In this document: positions 26,746-40,688 of the stretch, one piece after another
Numbering within the stretch: the first letter of the stretch is position 1
How the letters are laid out: each line of letters begins with the position of its first letter
Source of the DNA: a virus
Taxonomy: Duplodnaviria; Caudoviricetes
Strand: one strand, 5' to 3'
IMG/VR virus record: IMGVR_UViG_3300029288_000007
Span: 27,724-91,723 of that record
DNA length: 64,000 bases
Position numbers and translations under genes: made by a program
Notes under the pieces: model-generated
The model's input: the letters and a program-made list of their open reading frames with translations, nothing else
Told to the model about the DNA's origin: nothing
Databases searched by the model: none

Positions 26746-27507
26746 TTATTCCCAAGAATAAATTTTATTTATTTTGACTGGATTCAATTTTGTTTTGAAA
26801 CGATATAAATTTTCATCATCCAAACAACCACCGTCGTTGACCAATTTATTCTTATTTAAAATTTCCGGGTCAGTATAAAAAAGAAGTCTCATATATTCGC
26901 TTAAAAATTGCCCGGGTTTACAAAAGCAATATCGGAAATTGACATACATATAGTTCTCATCCCAAATATTCAACCCATAAATATTGCCGTACTGGTCCAA
27001 TAAAACTTTTCCATTCTCGCATTCGTTCAAGTAATTCAAAATAACTTTATCATCATAAATTACAACATCGTCCGGTTTGCCTTCCAACCACTGGCAAAGG
27101 ATATCTGGCAACGCGACAATTAAATTGCCATCGGTCTGTTTAAGATTAATATAACTCATTTTTTTATCAGGATTCCGATTGACAAATTTGCGGGAATTTT
27201 TTCTGAAGGTCTGAAAATCTCCTCCAGATAAATCAGAAAAGCGCTTTGGGTCGTAAATAAAATTATAATCCAAAAACTTTCCTTCCTTGCTCCCAAGACC
27301 GGCCCATGCTCCCGTGGACAATTTAAACATTTCTCCAGTCGCAAAATCAATCAAAGGCAACATCAAAAAGCCATCTCCATCTAAAACGCCAACAAGGCCG
27401 CCTTCTTCAAGATTTTCCCAACCGGCCTTCTCAAAATATTCCTCAGAACACCAGAAATTTGGCTCAATATTAAGCTTTTGGAGAGTCTCAAGATATTTAT
27501 TTCCCAT
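26746..27507 (-). CDS. DUF2156/MprF-C-like GNAT-fold protein (putative aminoacyl-tRNA-dependent transferase)
   Basis: NFIYDPKRFSDLSGGDFQTFRKNSRKF and VNDGGCLDDENLYRFKTKLNP match my recollection of the DUF2156 pattern DYIY..L..L.G.K....RN..N.F / N...DLG..GLR..K..Y.P. Confidence 0.62.
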   Translation of the reverse strand: MGNKYLETLQKLNIEPNFWCSEEYFEKAGWENLEEGGLVGVLDGDGFLMLPLIDFATGEMFKLSTGAWAGLGSKEGKFLDYNFIYDPKRFSDLSGGDFQTFRKNSRKFVNRNPDKKMSYINLKQTDGNLIVALPDILCQWLEGKPDDVVIYDDKVILNYLNECENGKVLLDQYGNIYGLNIWDENYMYVNFRYCFCKPGQFLSEYMRLLFYTDPEILNKNKLVNDGGCLDDENLYRFKTKLNPVKINKIYSWE

Positions 27508-27673: not shown

Positions 27674-28384
27674 TTATTGGACAACTTTGAAATCTCCCAT
27701 TTCGTCAAATAAGCACCAACTCAAAATTCCTGTTAGTCCGGTAATCTTTCCCTTCACAATAAAATAATTCATTTCCGGGACAAAAGAAAAGGTCAACTCC
27801 CTGTCATAACTGAAAAGGGCATCAAGGTCAACCGTTCTCAGGCCCATCGGAGAAAACGGAGCCAACTTGTCAACATCAATTAAGTCAAGCCCGGCTTTAT
27901 CCTTTGTAATTTCTATTACTGTTCCGGAAAAAATATCCCTTTGAATTACTTTGAGACCATTATCATAATGTATTTCCACATGGGACAAATCGTCTTGTAG
28001 AAGTCCCATTATTTCTCTGCGCAATGTGAAAATTGACGTCGTTTTCTTCCGACTGTAACGATAATACATCGTGGAGATTGAATCAAAATCTAACGACTTA
28101 TTTGACCCGCATTTCTTTTTACGAACATAGCCATCTGCCGTCGTTTTAAAAACGACAGAACCTCCCTCAACATAAAAATTCGAGGAATCATAATCATTCG
28201 CGTCAAAAACAATTTTTTCCTTGAACTCCGGGCAAACTTTCGGCAACACAAAACTCAACAAAATTGTTTTGTCAAAATTAACAATAAAAATTTCCCTTTC
28301 GTTACAAAGAATTGTATTCTTCATTTTCCCGGCCTGGTCCAACGATGCGGCATATTGAAAAATATTTTCAAGTTCCTTTTCCAT
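27674..28384 (-). CDS. hypothetical alpha/beta protein (possibly clamp-like)
   Basis: 236 aa within the radical SAM cassette. Confidence 0.65.
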   Translation of the reverse strand: MEKELENIFQYAASLDQAGKMKNTILCNEREIFIVNFDKTILLSFVLPKVCPEFKEKIVFDANDYDSSNFYVEGGSVVFKTTADGYVRKKKCGSNKSLDFDSISTMYYRYSRKKTTSIFTLRREIMGLLQDDLSHVEIHYDNGLKVIQRDIFSGTVIEITKDKAGLDLIDVDKLAPFSPMGLRTVDLDALFSYDRELTFSFVPEMNYFIVKGKITGLTGILSWCLFDEMGDFKVVQ

Positions 28385-32595: not shown

Positions 32596-32630
32596 ATTAT
32601 ACTCCCGAATGCATAAAATCCAAAAATTAT
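32596..32630 (-). promoter_or_regulatory. putative phage promoter (GGAGTATAAT family)
   Basis: TTTGGA-N17-TATAAT with GGGAG before the -10. Confidence 0.68.
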
Positions 32631-36694: not shown

Positions 36695-36969
36695 TATTTT
36701 AAAAAATAACTTTCTTCTTTTCTACTTCTTGCGGTCTGGAAAGTCTCAATGGTTATTTTTTTGCCTCTTTCTCTTAGAGTCTTAAATATTTTGGAAAAAT
36801 CAAGACTCATCTTTCTGGCAAAGGAGGCTCTTGCGGTATCATCTTTGATGCCATCAATTTCTATTCCATTCGCAGCCAGAGTTTTTGCAATAAGCGCCGC
36901 CATTATTGATTTGCCTTCTTTACAACCGCCAACAATTATAATTCTCATACTTTTCTCCTTTACATCCAT
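36694..36969 (-). CDS. small P-loop-like protein
   Basis: IIIVGGCKEGKS; probable start 36948. Confidence 0.55.
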   Translation of the reverse strand: MDVKEKSMRIIIVGGCKEGKSIMAALIAKTLAANGIEIDGIKDDTARASFARKMSLDFSKIFKTLRERGKKITIETFQTARSRKEESYFLK

Positions 36970-38423
36970 CCATTTTCAACGTAAATTTTTATTCTTTGAA
37001 TTGCGTGTTGGGCCAAAAAATCGTATGGGTCTAAAAAATCGACAAGCAATAAAAAACGTTTTGTCTCTGTTGTTCTAAGACCACGGCCAGGGCCTTGCAA
37101 TGTCATAATTTCAGCCTTGTATCCGCCGCCATTAATAACACAATCCAAAGAAGGAATGTTAAGTCCTTCTCGCCAGGCGTCAGTAGCAATAACGCCCATC
37201 GCTTGTTTTAATTTTAACTCCTCTTTTATTTTTTCCCGGATTTTTCCTGGAGTATTACCCTGAACAATTTTCACAGGAGTGTTATAAATTTCTTCAGCAA
37301 ATGATTTTATCATTTCCGCTTGACCGCCTACTACATCCTTAATCATAACAAGAACGGATAATCCTTGAGAATTTTGAAAACTGATTTCTTTGGCAATCAA
37401 CCGATTTCGCTGTCTGTTTTTTATAATTCCAGCAGTATAAACACCGTCAACAGTAACGTATTCTCCTTCTTCGTTTTTCTTTATCAAATCTTTATAATGA
37501 CGGATTGAAGCAATAGCCGGGCTTATTGGCACAGGGATTAATTTCACCCGGGGTTGGGCGATTATCTTTTTTTTAATGCCTTCTTCCATTGTCAATTCTC
37601 CTATTATGGGGCCTAGATATCCTTCACATACCAGCCCGGCCTTCCCTTTTGCAGTTGTGGCGGTGAAACCAATTCGGATGGGAGCAAGGCAATTTTTAAA
37701 GACAATTGCATATTGCCCATCTTCTTCCGTAATATGGTGCGCCTCATCAGTAATCATTATGTCTGCATCAGCAAGCAATTCCTCAAGGGCTAATTTATTG
37801 GCAAGCAATTCCTCAGAAGTTAATTTGGTTGAAGATTCTTTTTTATTTGACAATAAATTCCGGGCCGTTTGAATCATAATTACATTCACGCGCTCAATTG
37901 AAAACTGTTCATCGCCAATAGTGCCAACGGTGCCAAACCACTTTTTGAATTCTTCTATTGATTGAGTGAACAATGATTTTGTATGAACAATAAAAACAGC
38001 CTTGGATTTTGGAGCCATGGAAATGACGCCGCCAGCCATAACTGTCTTCCCTGAGCCGGTTGGAGATTTGATAACCCCTTGACGATGGATTTTAACGGCA
38101 TTTAGGTTGCGGGACTGGTCTTCTCTAAAAACAATTCCGGGCAAGCAAGGTTCTCCCAATGAGAAGTCATCGGGCAATGGGATAATTTCCAGTTCTATTC
38201 CATTCCGCTGACAATATTCTTTGACCCGGGGTAAAAGGCCCGTAAGTAAAGTCCCTTTCGCCCGGCGAACATCGTGCTTACATAGATATGATTCTCTTTC
38301 TTCCTTGACTTTATTGTATGGCCCTTGTTTCCAATGATGAGATGGGTATTTTAAACAATCCTTAATTGCGTGAATATCCGAACATTCCGCTCTGACAGGG
38401 TCAATAAATTTTATTGTAACCAT
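36960..38423 (-). CDS. SF2 DEAH helicase (UvsW-like)
   Basis: PTGSGKT, DEAH, TAT, EGLNIP, QGPGRGLR. Confidence 0.9.
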   Translation of the reverse strand: MVTIKFIDPVRAECSDIHAIKDCLKYPSHHWKQGPYNKVKEERESYLCKHDVRRAKGTLLTGLLPRVKEYCQRNGIELEIIPLPDDFSLGEPCLPGIVFREDQSRNLNAVKIHRQGVIKSPTGSGKTVMAGGVISMAPKSKAVFIVHTKSLFTQSIEEFKKWFGTVGTIGDEQFSIERVNVIMIQTARNLLSNKKESSTKLTSEELLANKLALEELLADADIMITDEAHHITEEDGQYAIVFKNCLAPIRIGFTATTAKGKAGLVCEGYLGPIIGELTMEEGIKKKIIAQPRVKLIPVPISPAIASIRHYKDLIKKNEEGEYVTVDGVYTAGIIKNRQRNRLIAKEISFQNSQGLSVLVMIKDVVGGQAEMIKSFAEEIYNTPVKIVQGNTPGKIREKIKEELKLKQAMGVIATDAWREGLNIPSLDCVINGGGYKAEIMTLQGPGRGLRTTETKRFLLLVDFLDPYDFLAQHAIQRIKIYVENGWM

Positions 38424-38427
38424 GATT

Positions 38428-38691
38428 TTAAAACGGGACTTTGGCCAATTCCGCCTCTTCTATTTTTTGTAACTCTTCTTCAGTTAAAGGATTATCTTTG
38501 TCATATTTCCTGTGGCAATGAGGGCACAATAATCTGAACCGTTCTTTTTTATATTTTTTTATGTCAAGTGTTCTTCGGTTTTTCCCTCTGCTTTCTCCAA
38601 AATTATATCGAAAACCTATTTTTATGAGCGAATTGTAATTTATAAATATCATTTTCTGGGCATTCTTCGCATTTTGCCCCAAATTCTTCAA
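38428..38691 (-). CDS. hypothetical protein (LLCPHCH)
   Basis: C-terminal CxxCH; start uncertain. Confidence 0.4.
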   Translation of the reverse strand: MKNLGQNAKNAQKMIFINYNSLIKIGFRYNFGESRGKNRRTLDIKKYKKERFRLLCPHCHRKYDKDNPLTEEELQKIEEAELAKVPF

Positions 38692-38787
38692 TTAATTCTA
38701 ATCTTAATTTCCGAACACGCTCGTTTGAGCTATGTTTTGACTTGTAATTTTCTTGGCTTTCTGACATTAATTAAAATTCCTTTCGGG

Positions 38788-38944
38788 AAGCAGGGAGGGG
38801 TTTGATACCCTCATGAGGTTAGTTTGGGCTCTCACCACGTTTCTTCTGGTATCTAGTGCACTAGCCAGATTAACATTCGTCCCTCAGTTTTCAGCAAGTC
38901 TTATCCCTCGCCTTATCCGCGTCTGTACTCTTCCGCCACCTGCT
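38788..38944 (-). ncRNA. tRNA-Leu-like RNA with ~105-nt insert replacing anticodon and variable arms
   Basis: AGCAGG/CCTGCT acceptor, TGGCGGAA..AGACGC D-arm, GAGGG-TATCAAAC-CCCTC T-arm; begins ~7 nt after the -10 at 38952-38957. Confidence 0.6.
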
Positions 38945-38951
38945 AACTTTT

Positions 38952-38985
38952 ATTATACTCCCATTAAAACAATTCTACAAAACTT
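38952..38985 (-). promoter_or_regulatory. putative phage promoter (GGAGTATAAT family)
   Basis: TTTTGT...GGGAGTATAAT directly upstream of the tRNA-like RNA. Confidence 0.65.
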
Positions 38986-39347
38986 TCTATTTCGCGAACT
39001 GTTTTCTTCGCATAAGCGCGGTCTTGCCACTTCTTTGCCAAGTAAGTAACCAGCCGGGTTCTGATAACAGAGGCCTTACCCCAGCGTCCATTGGGAGTAA
39101 AGAACACTTCTGCCATTTCCCTTGGGCTGTTTAAAACGATTTCAATAATCTGTTTTGCTTCATCAGACATTTCTTTATATCTTTCAGAAATGGCCATCTC
39201 CTCTTCCTTTCTTTCAAGCAAAGATAGAGGGTTGTTTTCATCTGTCAACACGTTGCACAATTCTGGCAAATCATATGTGACATAGTTATTAATGTCTGCT
39301 GCGACTAAAGCGGCGTTGAACGATATGGTATCAATTGGTCTCCCCAT
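38964..39347 (-). CDS. hypothetical helical protein (possible transcription factor)
   Basis: AAGGAGG SD; MSDEAKQIIEIVL weakly resembles sigma region 4 starts. Confidence 0.6.
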   Translation of the reverse strand: MGRPIDTISFNAALVAADINNYVTYDLPELCNVLTDENNPLSLLERKEEEMAISERYKEMSDEAKQIIEIVLNSPREMAEVFFTPNGRWGKASVIRTRLVTYLAKKWQDRAYAKKTVREIESFVELF

Positions 39348-39595
39348 GATTTGTGGCCTCCTTTGCCTTTAAAAAGTTGAATATCATTTTCCCCTTTTTG
39401 CAACTCTTGCAGCCCAGATAATTTTTTGATTTTCTATTCATGCACGCTTTGACATCCAACTGGTAATTCCTTTTATTGCAATAAATTGTTTGGGCCAATT
39501 TAAAATCTTTACAAATCTTTTCCCCCTTTGCAAGTTGGGTAATCTAAGCATAAATTACACGTCATTGCGGGCAGCGTTTGTCTTGTTATTTCCAT
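39331..39595 (-). pseudogene. Cys-rich small gene with +1 frameshift in G5A4 run
   Basis: AAGGAG SD, MEITRQTLPAMTCNLCLDYPTCKGG continues in +1 frame KICKDF...GCKSCKKG...; 265 nt = 88 codons + 1. Confidence 0.5.
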
Positions 39596-39752
39596 GTTTC
39601 TGCTCCTTTTTAGATATTCGCCGGGCTGCTTTTTCTAAAATATCAGAAAACAATTTGGTTTCTGATATCACTCTCTTCTTTGCTTCCATGGCCAATACTT
39701 GCCTTGCCGTTTTTAAAATATAAGCAGATACCACAATTTTACTTGATGGCAT
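39555..39752 (-). CDS. ribbon-helix-helix-like small protein
   Basis: GGAGG SD before MPSSKIVVSAYI; strand-helix-helix pattern. Confidence 0.55.
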   Translation of the reverse strand: MPSSKIVVSAYILKTARQVLAMEAKKRVISETKLFSDILEKAARRISKKEQKHGNNKTNAARNDV

Positions 39753-39787
39753 GATTAAACCCTCCATAAATGTTTTTTGATTTTTGC

Positions 39788-39862
39788 CTGGCACGGCAGG
39801 ATTTTAACCTGCGCTCCCATCCCGGTTGGGACAGTGTCCTGACCACATTAAACGACGTGCCA
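39788..39862 (-). ncRNA. tRNA-Gln-like pseudo-tRNA without canonical anticodon loop
   Basis: TGGCACG/CGTGCCA acceptor, G73, D-arm, 7-bp stem with AACC tetraloop, T-arm GCAGG-TTAAAAT-CCTGC. Confidence 0.68.
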
Positions 39863-39908
39863 AACAAAAAGTTTTTAAAGCTTTTTTAAAAAAAAGTAAA
39901 GATATTTC

Positions 39909-40688
39909 TTAAAAATAAAAGGCCCGGCGCATGGCGCTTTCAATCGCGGCCTTCTTCAAATGACTCTCCACCCGGTGCGTAACATATTGGCAAAGAATAT
40001 TAAAGAACAGCCATACAGATAGAGTTCTCAATTTCATTGCGTCCATTGTTATTCCGGAGGAGACTTCAACCTCTTCCCCGATTGCCGCAACGTCTTTATT
40101 TGCCAATGGAAGCGCATTTATCACTCGCTCATATTCGTTGGGCATTGTGATTCTGTCAACCCATTTTTCCCAAATGCGTTTCTGTTCAGATAAATGCTCC
40201 ATTGAAGAAATCAATGTCGCCGATACGTTCTCTGCGTTGAAAGAGGTATCGTGCCGTGTTTTGTATGCAAAAATCTTTTCGCCGATTGTCAAACCGTTCT
40301 TACAAACAAGCCTGTATGCGCCAAAGAAAATCTTGCGCGCCCATCCCAAATCATAACTGTTAAGCATATCAATTTGAGGATGAAGTAAATCGTGTTTGCC
40401 AACGTTGACTTCGACTTCTTCAAAGACATAAGTCGCTCTCATTTTCGCGCCGCCATCGTATAATTTAATTGTTTCAGTTGGCTTGCCGTATTCTGGCATT
40501 TTTGCCATGACCTGGTGAATGGTTTCAATCATCTGCTCGTGAGGAGTCAAAACGTAATCCTCGCTGACAACGCTAAAAACATTCCCGTTGTCAGGGTTGA
40601 TGATTGCTTTGTATCCATCTATCTTCGACCCGGGCCTGCCTAATTGAGTCAAGAAAACCGGCCTTTGTTCTACTTTTGGAAAATCCAT
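39909..40688 (-). CDS. DUF932-family protein
   Basis: VVSEDY..H, NSYD, RLVCKNGL, RH motifs. Confidence 0.8.
   Translation of the reverse strand: MDFPKVEQRPVFLTQLGRPGSKIDGYKAIINPDNGNVFSVVSEDYVLTPHEQMIETIHQVMAKMPEYGKPTETIKLYDGGAKMRATYVFEEVEVNVGKHDLLHPQIDMLNSYDLGWARKIFFGAYRLVCKNGLTIGEKIFAYKTRHDTSFNAENVSATLISSMEHLSEQKRIWEKWVDRITMPNEYERVINALPLANKDVAAIGEEVEVSSGITMDAMKLRTLSVWLFFNILCQYVTHRVESHLKKAAIESAMRRAFYF

Follow-up and report, generated by a model that had tools for sequence, protein, structure and literature searches.

The DNA analysed here, referred to as the window, is the right-hand 64 kb (64,000 nucleotides, positions 27,724 to 91,723) of the 91.7-kb IMG/VR virus record IMGVR_UViG_3300029288_000007, a Caudoviricetes genome with direct terminal repeats. 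All genes of the window lie on the minus strand, and on this strand, between an open reading frame (ORF) termed ORF127 and a helicase gene, is an element of ~157 nt shaped like a leucine transfer RNA (tRNA-Leu). The reading favoured here, to which a probability of roughly one in two is given, is that the element is a non-decoding RNA built on a tRNA-Leu frame, of the kind represented by RNA1 and RNA2 of phage T5 and by species 1 RNA of phage T4, and that it resides in a mobile cassette together with a gene for an HNH homing endonuclease.

Anatomy of the RNA

The element and its parts are as follows (window coordinates).

38789..38945, minus strand: tRNA-Leu-shaped RNA, ~157 nt, with recognisable acceptor, D-arm and T-arm
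38944-38939 and 38794-38789, minus strand: acceptor, AGCAGG paired with CCUGCU in six Watson-Crick pairs, preceded by U38945
38936-38919, minus strand: Leu-type D-arm, GCG(G)-AAGAGUACAGA-CGC, with a 3-bp stem
38813..38917, minus strand: insert between D-arm and T-arm, ~105 nt, described from its minimum-energy fold and shuffle tests
38912-38893, minus strand: first hairpin of the insert, GGCGAG-GGAUAAGA-CUUGCU, 6 bp with an 8-nt loop, anticodon-arm-like
38886-38814, minus strand: three-way arm of the insert, closed by UGAGG/CCUCA
38869-38845, minus strand: long hairpin of the insert, UCUGG-CUAG-UGCA-CUAG-AUA-CCAGA
38864-38853, minus strand: 12-nt palindrome CTAGTGCACTAG within the long hairpin
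38836-38827, minus strand: small hairpin of the insert, GGU-GAGA-GCC
38812-38795, minus strand: T-arm, GAGGG-UAUCAAAC-CCCUC, with a 5-bp stem and an 8-nt loop

Every part named in the original prediction, namely a 6-bp acceptor, a Leu-type D-arm, a T-arm with an 8-nt loop and an insert of ~105 nt with its hairpin, is thus found on the minus strand. The D-arm, with the class II Leu pattern GCGGAA...AGACGC, comes after a 7-nt acceptor strand and the dinucleotide UG. The acceptor pairs form with probabilities of 0.81-1.0 in a 260-nt context and the 14 pairs that make up its acceptor, D and T stems are Watson-Crick without exception, though loop positions that are normally invariant have been altered. 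The D-loop AAGAGUACAGA has no GG (G18G19) and the T-loop UAUCAAAC does not follow UUCRANY. In the 3' tail, UCCCGAAA, the base after the acceptor is not A73; CCUGCU is followed by UCCC, and no CCA is encoded.

The minimum-energy fold has an overall cloverleaf-like shape. It had been proposed that the insert takes the place of the anticodon arm, and an insert of ~105 nt is indeed present; its fold, however, consists of an anticodon-arm-like hairpin followed by a branched arm of ~75 nt, the three-way arm, at the position of the variable arm. An anticodon arm proper (5 bp, a 7-nt loop, U33 and a Leu anticodon) is not present in the element, the nearest hairpin loop, GGAUAAGA, being without U33 in position. 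Against shuffled sequences, z-scores are -1.8 for the insert, -2.5 for the long hairpin and -3.6 for the first hairpin.

Resemblance to tRNA-Leu

When the 5' 32 nt are aligned with Escherichia coli leuV, positions 4-28 of the element match leuV positions 4-27 with a score of 28 and the common pattern AGGUGGCGGAA..G.GU..AGACGCG. Dinucleotide shuffles score 14.4 +/- 2.6 (z about 5), and the element ranks first of 6112 windows taken from both strands of the genome. Compared with 35 tRNAs from E. coli, T4, T5 and this phage itself, the 5' half is by far most similar to E. coli tRNA-Leu, with a score of 12, whereas 33 others reach 6 or less. The 3' half, comprising T-arm and acceptor, is weakly similar to tRNA-Leu (p about 0.012). 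A second, inner copy of tRNA-Leu suggested by a MAFFT alignment was rejected as not significant (p = 0.54). The frame of acceptor, D-arm and T-arm taken by itself would be expected by chance about once in the genome, according to a rough estimate. It is in combination that the Leu-specific sequence, the placement at a predicted transcription start, the GC content and the 14 intact stem pairs lift the resemblance above chance.

Canonical tRNA-Leu, a class II member of RF00005, has in common with the element the 5' half AGGUGGCGGAA..GUA.AGACGCG as well as the layout of the acceptor, D and T stems. It has ~35 nt where the element has 105 nt, the element being without an anticodon arm, and it possesses G18G19, TΨC, A73 and CCA, none of which is found in the element. 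Charging by leucyl-tRNA synthetase (LeuRS) is doubtful because A73, CCA, the D-loop GG and a UUCRANY T-loop are all lacking. Judged from its sequence, the element probably neither decodes nor is charged efficiently. The suggestion that it serves as a synthetase ligand or an amino acid carrier accordingly finds little in its favour, and the idea of a decoy for anticodon nucleases is not supported, there being no Leu anticodon loop to cut.

Tests against known RNA classes

The element does not fall into a known class. With default settings for tRNA and transfer-messenger RNA (tmRNA), ARAGORN found neither in the window or in the whole genome. Rfam gave no match for the element at the gathering threshold and, in searches with 801 nt and 171 nt at E values up to 10, nothing relevant and no tRNA. 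When ARAGORN was relaxed to 80% thresholds (-ps80 -i), it called a ‘tRNA-Leu(aag)’ with a 69-nt intron, which was discarded as noise because the same setting yields 129 calls in 92 kb. A scan for hidden introns, in which internal segments of 30-124 nt were deleted, gave no product that ARAGORN accepted at default thresholds (0/5539). The exclusion of tmRNA and of a group I intron, which had been made on length, was borne out by these results. For tmRNA, the tmRNA mode of ARAGORN was negative, no G-U pair occurs in the acceptor and a length of 157 nt does not suffice; a group I intron would need more than 105 nt, and none of the Rfam intron families is matched. An intron within a split protein gene is ruled out because ORF127 and the helicase are both complete in relatives. 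The earlier description of a non-decoding, tRNA-Leu-shaped RNA agrees with the missing anticodon arm and with these ARAGORN and Rfam searches, which matched neither a known family nor a spliced intron.

YrlA and other Y RNAs are also non-decoding RNAs with tRNA-like D and T features that occur in phages. The 5' and 3' ends of YrlA, however, form a Ro-binding stem, whereas those of the element form an acceptor. Membership of this class found no footing, as there is neither a TROVE nor an RtcB gene in the phage and no match to Y RNA in Rfam.

Searches for homologues were likewise negative. No homologue of the element was found by blastn in a phage collection, in a search of E. coli genomes or by blastn in 301 genomes of the Syntrophales order, and nhmmer and blastn found no similarity to it in 80 metagenome loci of helicase relatives. 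Exact-pattern searches of IMG/VR with the element produced no true homologue; five matches were dismissed as chance occurrences inside coding sequence. The insert by itself had no homologue in blastn and nhmmer searches of the phage collection, the relatives' loci and the Syntrophales-order genomes, and searches with the ORF127 and HNH proteins led to no useful relatives carrying the RNA.

Precedents in T5 and T4

The closest precedents are annotated in coliphages. In the GenBank record of T5, several RNAs interspersed with tRNA genes and with five genes for HNH endonucleases are annotated as ‘tRNA-like stable RNAs with unknown functions’. One of these is RNA1 (gene rna1, NC_005859 30501-30644), which at 144 nt is similar in size to the element (~157 nt). 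In both, the two ends form a 6-bp acceptor, UG follows, and a Leu-type D-arm with a 3-bp stem comes next, GCCGG-AAUUGGUAGA-CGG in T5 RNA1 (D-arm sequence GCCGGAAUUGGUAGACGG) and GGCGG-AAGAGUACAGA-CGC in the element. Both have a large structured insert between D-arm and T-arm and a 5-bp T-stem beside the 3' strand of the acceptor, both are without an encoded CCA, and both lie among HNH homing endonuclease genes. There are also clear differences. T5 RNA1 retains a canonical D-loop with GG, the T-loop UUCAACU, an anticodon stem and a class II variable arm, whereas the element has lost the GG and the UUC. The insert of T5 RNA1 (~47 nt) sits inside the anticodon loop, that of the element is branched, and outside the tRNA frame similarity between the two is not significant (p = 0.33 for the middle parts). 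T5 RNA1 belongs to a large tRNA cluster, whereas the element lies between replication genes. T5 RNA2 is also annotated as a tRNA-like stable RNA among HNH or GIY-YIG genes.

Species 1 RNA of T4 (rnaC, NC_000866 70908-71046; 139 nt) resembles the element in having an acceptor-like stem, a T-arm and a middle of ~100 nt, and adjoins a tRNA gene and the homing endonuclease gene segB much as the element adjoins its HNH gene. It has no Leu-type D-arm, its T-loop is the canonical UUCGAAU, and it has no detectable sequence homology with the element. The element has the structural features by which phage tRNA-like stable RNAs may be recognised: an acceptor formed by the ends beside a T-arm, a large middle insert and a length of 100-170 nt. 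Its surroundings also agree, with an HNH ORF 21 nt downstream and a match to the tRNA model 850 nt upstream. Phage tRNA regions are regularly found in association with SegB-type and HNH enzymes (PMC2330249; PMC13096335).

A family of tRNA-Leu-like RNAs in prophage regions

One genome per GTDB species was searched with the exact pattern AGCAGGTGGCGGAA-N2-7-GTAGACGC, taken from the 5' end of the element. The single match, in a metagenome-assembled genome of the Smithellaceae, is an RNA of ~140 nt that is not a canonical tRNA-Leu. It reads GCAGG-UG-GCGG-AAUAGGUAGA-CGC, an insert of ~85 nt, GCAGGG-UGCAAAU-CCCUGC and CCUGCC, and it has a tRNA fragment, a primase-like gene and two integrases as neighbours. 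Further members of this family, termed R1, comprise four full copies in three Syntrophales-order genomes and two partial 3' ends; in one of the four full copies the acceptor is fully compensated (CUGUGG/CCACAG), and two more copies were found in IMG/VR viral contigs by exact pattern. The family is rare, the model having found it in 2 of 151 genomes. Its members, with their locus handles, are these.

L098, 5361-5502
L104, 1500-1627, minus strand
L105, 1500-1596, minus strand
L103, 1222-1398 and 1414-1543
L141, 568-796
L142, 3836-4027

The inserts of the R1 RNAs range from 55 to 190 nt and are mutually unrelated. At a prophage edge in three bacterial genomes, the RNA faces a genuine tRNA-Leu gene in convergent orientation at a distance of 120-170 nt. 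The copy in the viral contig V141 has ACCA at its end and is followed, 650 nt downstream, by an HNH endonuclease gene (phrog_99, E 1e-62). Several members stand alone as genes and possess a terminator of their own, and the ORFs that precede R1 members show no relationship to ORF127. ARAGORN calls no member as a tRNA, and L098, the sole member scanned against Rfam, gave no match.

In a model-guided alignment of eight R1 sequences, 93.7% of cells pair, compared with 39-53% in slid controls. In the acceptor, five of seven pairs change on both sides, and none of 500 shuffles reaches the observed values, although these statistics lean toward structure because the alignment was fitted to the model. 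A covariance model built from six members, with the phage sequence left out, has the element as its only match in the phage genome, over its full length (38945-38787) at 27.6 bits (E about 1.5e-4); the next match in the window scores 10.4 bits. As controls, true tRNA-Leu score 17-23 bits, T5 RNA1 19.4, the divergent held-out member G018a 29.9 and core members 80-130. The 3' part of the element is closer to the R1 family than to any real tRNA-Leu and, like the compensatory T-stem pair described below, gives some signal that does not depend on the 5' motif used to find the family.

The element and the R1 RNAs have an identical acceptor core, GCAGG/CCUGC, and have in common the UG, GCGG-AA...GUAGACGC, a large insert between D-arm and T-arm and carriage by phages or prophages. 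Their T-stems, GAGGG/CCCUC in the element and CAGGG/CCCUG in R1, differ by one compensatory pair (G-C for C-G). The R1 D-loop AAUAGGUAGA keeps the GG that AAGAGUACAGA has lost, one R1 member ends in ACCA whereas the element has no CCA, and the inserts are unrelated. The match to the R1 family is firm as regards design; membership of the family is likely but unproven. Thus, of the homologues and covariation sought for the element, no close homologue came to light, while covariation was seen in the family to which it likely belongs.

Promoter and transcript

The sequence in front of the element and that following it contain these features.

38951..38980, minus strand: phage promoter, with a -35-like TTGTAG (38980-38975), a 17-nt spacer and GGGAG-TATAAT-A
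38768..38788, minus strand: linker with a Shine–Dalgarno-like AAGGAA, after which the AUG of the HNH ORF follows 21 nt after the structure

The promoter comes directly after the stop codon of ORF127 (38966-38964). Its -10 element, TATAAT (38957-38952), lies 7 nt before U38945, in agreement with the earlier estimate of a start ~7 nt downstream of a promoter. The promoter word GGGAGTATAATA, with up to two mismatches, occurs in ~10 copies on the minus, coding strand, with TTGnnn 17 nt upstream, usually 15-25 nt before a ribosome-binding site and ATG (for example at window positions 32606, 30068, 19745, 9623 and 2478, minus strand). Because it recurs ahead of genes, it is regarded as a genuine promoter type of this phage. 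Among these promoters, only the copy in front of the element precedes a leader of ~180 nt. A similar promoter follows the ORF127 homologue of the relative L003. With a GGGAGTATAATA-type promoter in place, the element is probably transcribed from its own promoter, as had been proposed. A terminator scan found no site within 38000-40000, and the element is therefore taken to open a longer transcript extending into the HNH and helicase genes.

The cassette and its site of insertion

Three genes surround the element.

38964..39347, minus strand: ORF127, conserved upstream backbone gene, left border of the insert
38428..38767, minus strand: small HNH homing endonuclease gene, broken by a +1 frameshift in an A5 run (38626-38615)
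36960..38423, minus strand: superfamily 2 helicase, conserved downstream backbone gene, right border of the insert (Pfam ResIII, DEAD and Helicase_C)

When the HNH frames are joined across the shift, with AATA read as N, the resulting protein (P0001) matches the PHROG HNH families 3106 and 2255 with E values of 6e-9 and 3e-8, and the matches span the frameshift. A close homologue of this protein was not found among 5.8 billion proteins. The frameshift could mark a pseudogene, an assembly error in a homopolymer or a programmed shift. At 0.50, the GC content of the element exceeds that of the genome (0.39) and that of the neighbouring HNH gene (0.33).

Relatives of the helicase, 47-61% identical, are present in Logan, JGI and ENA assemblies, and in 12 related contigs a homologue of ORF127 lies directly upstream. 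The gap between the two genes measures 13-40 nt in L005, L014 and L018 and holds a different small gene in L003, L006 and L016. In L094 and L095 (2898-3000) it contains a rod-like hairpin of ~75 nt that GGAAGGGGU/ACCCCUUCC closes, with a U-rich tract behind it; the hairpin may be a terminator or a processing site. In L015 (Ga0172381_10000216, 2924-2982) the same gap holds, immediately downstream of a TATTAT box, a tRNA-derived element of 59 nt that has no anticodon arm. This reads GGGUG-UA-GGC-UAUUGGUAGGG-GCC-AAGAUUCA, followed by GCAGG-UUCAAUU-CCUGC-CAUCC-U-G-CCA; its D-loop is canonical, its T-loop is UUCAAUU, its acceptor includes a G-U pair, and GCCA is encoded.

In the phage studied here, the RNA and the HNH gene form an insert of ~540 bp between ORF127 and the helicase that is absent from relatives. 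As no relative shows sequence similarity to the element, the promoter is assigned to the backbone, and the RNA with its HNH gene is a lineage-specific insert at a hot spot. That the RNA opens such an insert, together with a frameshifted HNH gene, and that it has annotated precedents in T5 and T4, is context that the original prediction did not contain.

A helicase homologue of 749 aa, P0037, carries intein (PF14890) and HNH_3 domains; in this phage group homing elements therefore reach this gene region by more than one route. The source records of two other homologues, P0018 and P0025 (47-48% identity), are labelled Patescibacteria/Paceibacterota. The nearest look-alikes of the element, by contrast, are in Syntrophales-order genomes.

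Other features of the window

A second non-canonical tRNA-like gene lies at 39788-39862 on the minus strand, 850 nt upstream of the element. It scores 36.1 bits with the Rfam tRNA model (gathering score 29 bits) and was missed by ARAGORN and by the gathering-threshold Rfam scan of the whole window. Its acceptor is a perfect 7 bp, its T-loop reads UUAAAAU, and its anticodon arm, 18 nt long, has an 8-nt loop, CCAACCGG, that is able to close to a tetraloop. No counterpart was found at the same position in the relatives L003 and L094.

A plus-strand ORF at 38813-39049, which is antisense to all genes, has no family match. Elsewhere in the window (26746-27507, minus strand), a protein of 253 aa has a sub-threshold match to Pfam LPG_synthase_C/DUF2156 (E 0.006; 16 bits, cut-off 27.5) and has two weak radical SAM matches and a pyridoxal phosphate-dependent enzyme as neighbours. 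Neither a Ro60/TROVE gene nor an RtcB ligase gene was found in the phage.

Proposed mechanism

The phage promoter is so placed that transcription should start at, or one base before, the 5' strand of the acceptor. In the predicted fold the ends pair, with the 6-bp acceptor stacked on the 5-bp T-stem and the Leu-type D-arm kept. Such an acceptor/T minihelix is a feature that tRNA end-processing enzymes would be expected to recognise, and on this ground the RNA is likely to be released from the mRNA and to remain stable. RNase Z, or RNase E together with exonucleases, may act at the 3' side, while RNase P may act at the 5' side of read-through transcripts that arrive from upstream. Excised in this way, the RNA would accumulate as a stable molecule of ~157 nt. 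The tRNA frame could then be viewed as a stabilising, processing-competent scaffold that displays the 105-nt insert as its functional cargo. Two reports describe engineered tRNA scaffolds in which foreign RNA replaces the anticodon arm (PMC3753655, PMC3401473). The homing endonuclease would account for the arrival and spread of the cassette.

Alternative explanations

A number of findings weigh against this interpretation. In the comparison with leuV the runner-up among the genome windows scores 25, so that the element leads by only 3 units. The R1 model places it only about 5 bits ahead of true tRNA-Leu, a lead that is moreover inflated, the 5' motif of the element itself having served to find the family, and its 5-bp T-arm with the 8-nt loop UAUCAAAC differs from the 6-bp T-arm with UGCAAAU of R1. 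There is no close homologue of the exact RNA on which covariation of the element itself could be judged. The whole-fold z-score against shuffles is only -1.55 (p about 0.06), and the frameshift in the adjacent HNH gene fits a decaying cassette.

Several of these points favour the main rival, which is serious though, on balance, unlikely to be correct. According to this, the element is a decaying tRNA-Leu pseudogene, brought in with a homing endonuclease cassette, that has gained insertions, lost its anticodon arm and loop signatures, and has no function; it would be transcribed only through its position behind the helicase promoter. The element is a singleton, absent from all relatives and without close homologues, its neighbour is itself broken, the D-loop GG and T-loop UUC are gone, the whole-fold z-score is marginal, and the L015 element resembles another truncated tRNA at the same spot. 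Set against this is the state of the stems, all 14 pairs of the acceptor, D and T stems being intact and Watson-Crick while normally invariant loops have changed. Nor is there a drift toward genome composition, the element having a GC content of 0.50 in a 0.39 genome and a structured insert. Its start coincides with the predicted transcription start, and the design of a tRNA frame with a large insert is conserved in the covarying R1 family and in T5 RNA1.

The element lies between a promoter and the first ORF, no terminator intervenes, and a Shine–Dalgarno sequence and AUG follow 21 nt after the structure. It might on this account be a cis-acting structured 5' leader, never released, that controls translation or stability of the HNH/helicase mRNA, and the homing endonuclease genes of T-even phages are indeed translationally restrained by leader hairpins, as in the work on I-TevI and mobE. 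This is nevertheless improbable. The Shine–Dalgarno sequence AAGGAA is not sequestered, only a 2-4-bp hairpin being possible, relatives express the helicase from the same promoter region without such a leader, there is no match to a riboswitch or leader family, and the specific tRNA-Leu frame would be left unexplained. A functional tRNA-Leu with a removable intron, to which the tRNA-Leu-like ends and the relaxed ARAGORN call of tRNA-Leu(aag) with a 69-nt intron might be taken to point, is effectively excluded: the relaxed setting makes 129 calls in the 92-kb genome and none of the 5539 deletions passes default thresholds, no anticodon stem flanks the insert, and 105 nt is too short for group I, with no Rfam intron family matched and no RtcB in the phage.

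It is also conceivable, with a likelihood as slight as that of the leader, that the RNA is an active tRNA mimic: a decoy for a tRNA-targeting defence nuclease, a LeuRS ligand or an amino acid carrier for a phage transferase. Septu and retron-Eco7 cut the variable loop of class II tRNAs and are countered by phage tRNA variants, with which homing endonucleases travel (PMC13096335). This phage has two tRNA-like RNAs without a normal anticodon loop, and one of its proteins has the weak LPG_synthase_C/DUF2156 match. That match, however, is below the Pfam threshold, the element has neither A73 nor CCA and its D and T loops are non-canonical, no Ro60/TROVE protein is encoded, and nothing links the RNA to any nuclease or synthetase. 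Were a released mimic to act in trans, which is again a long shot, it could be a sponge for a host factor directed at tRNA-Leu, for instance LeuRS or a defence nuclease cutting class II tRNAs, or a non-ribosomal carrier for the DUF2156-like enzyme, with the HNH enzyme spreading or amplifying it as an anti-defence cargo. On that view the gene at 39788-39862, the mini element of L015 and the R1 family would represent separate answers to one problem, arrived at in parallel.

Significance

The earlier interpretation is partly supported: it was right in kind, a non-decoding look-alike of a tRNA, and unsupported in its specifics. Under the reading preferred here, the element adds a divergent new member to a class of phage RNAs that is known yet unexplained in function; it is more derived in that the D-loop GG and T-loop UUC have been lost. 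To our knowledge, T4 species 1 and 2, T5 RNA1 and RNA2 and others of this class, sequenced decades ago, still have no assigned function. The combination of a tRNA-Leu frame, a large structured insert instead of the anticodon region and an adjacent homing endonuclease is now seen in an uncultivated phage lineage far from the coliphages as well. A by-product of the analysis is an unannotated, covarying family of tRNA-Leu-like prophage RNAs that standard tRNA finders miss, as does Rfam in the one member scanned, and routine annotation does not reveal such RNAs. A link with homing endonucleases would account for how they spread. If the tRNA frame is a natural scaffold for cargo, the variable inserts are the place to seek function, which may lie in antisense action, protein sponging or anti-defence.

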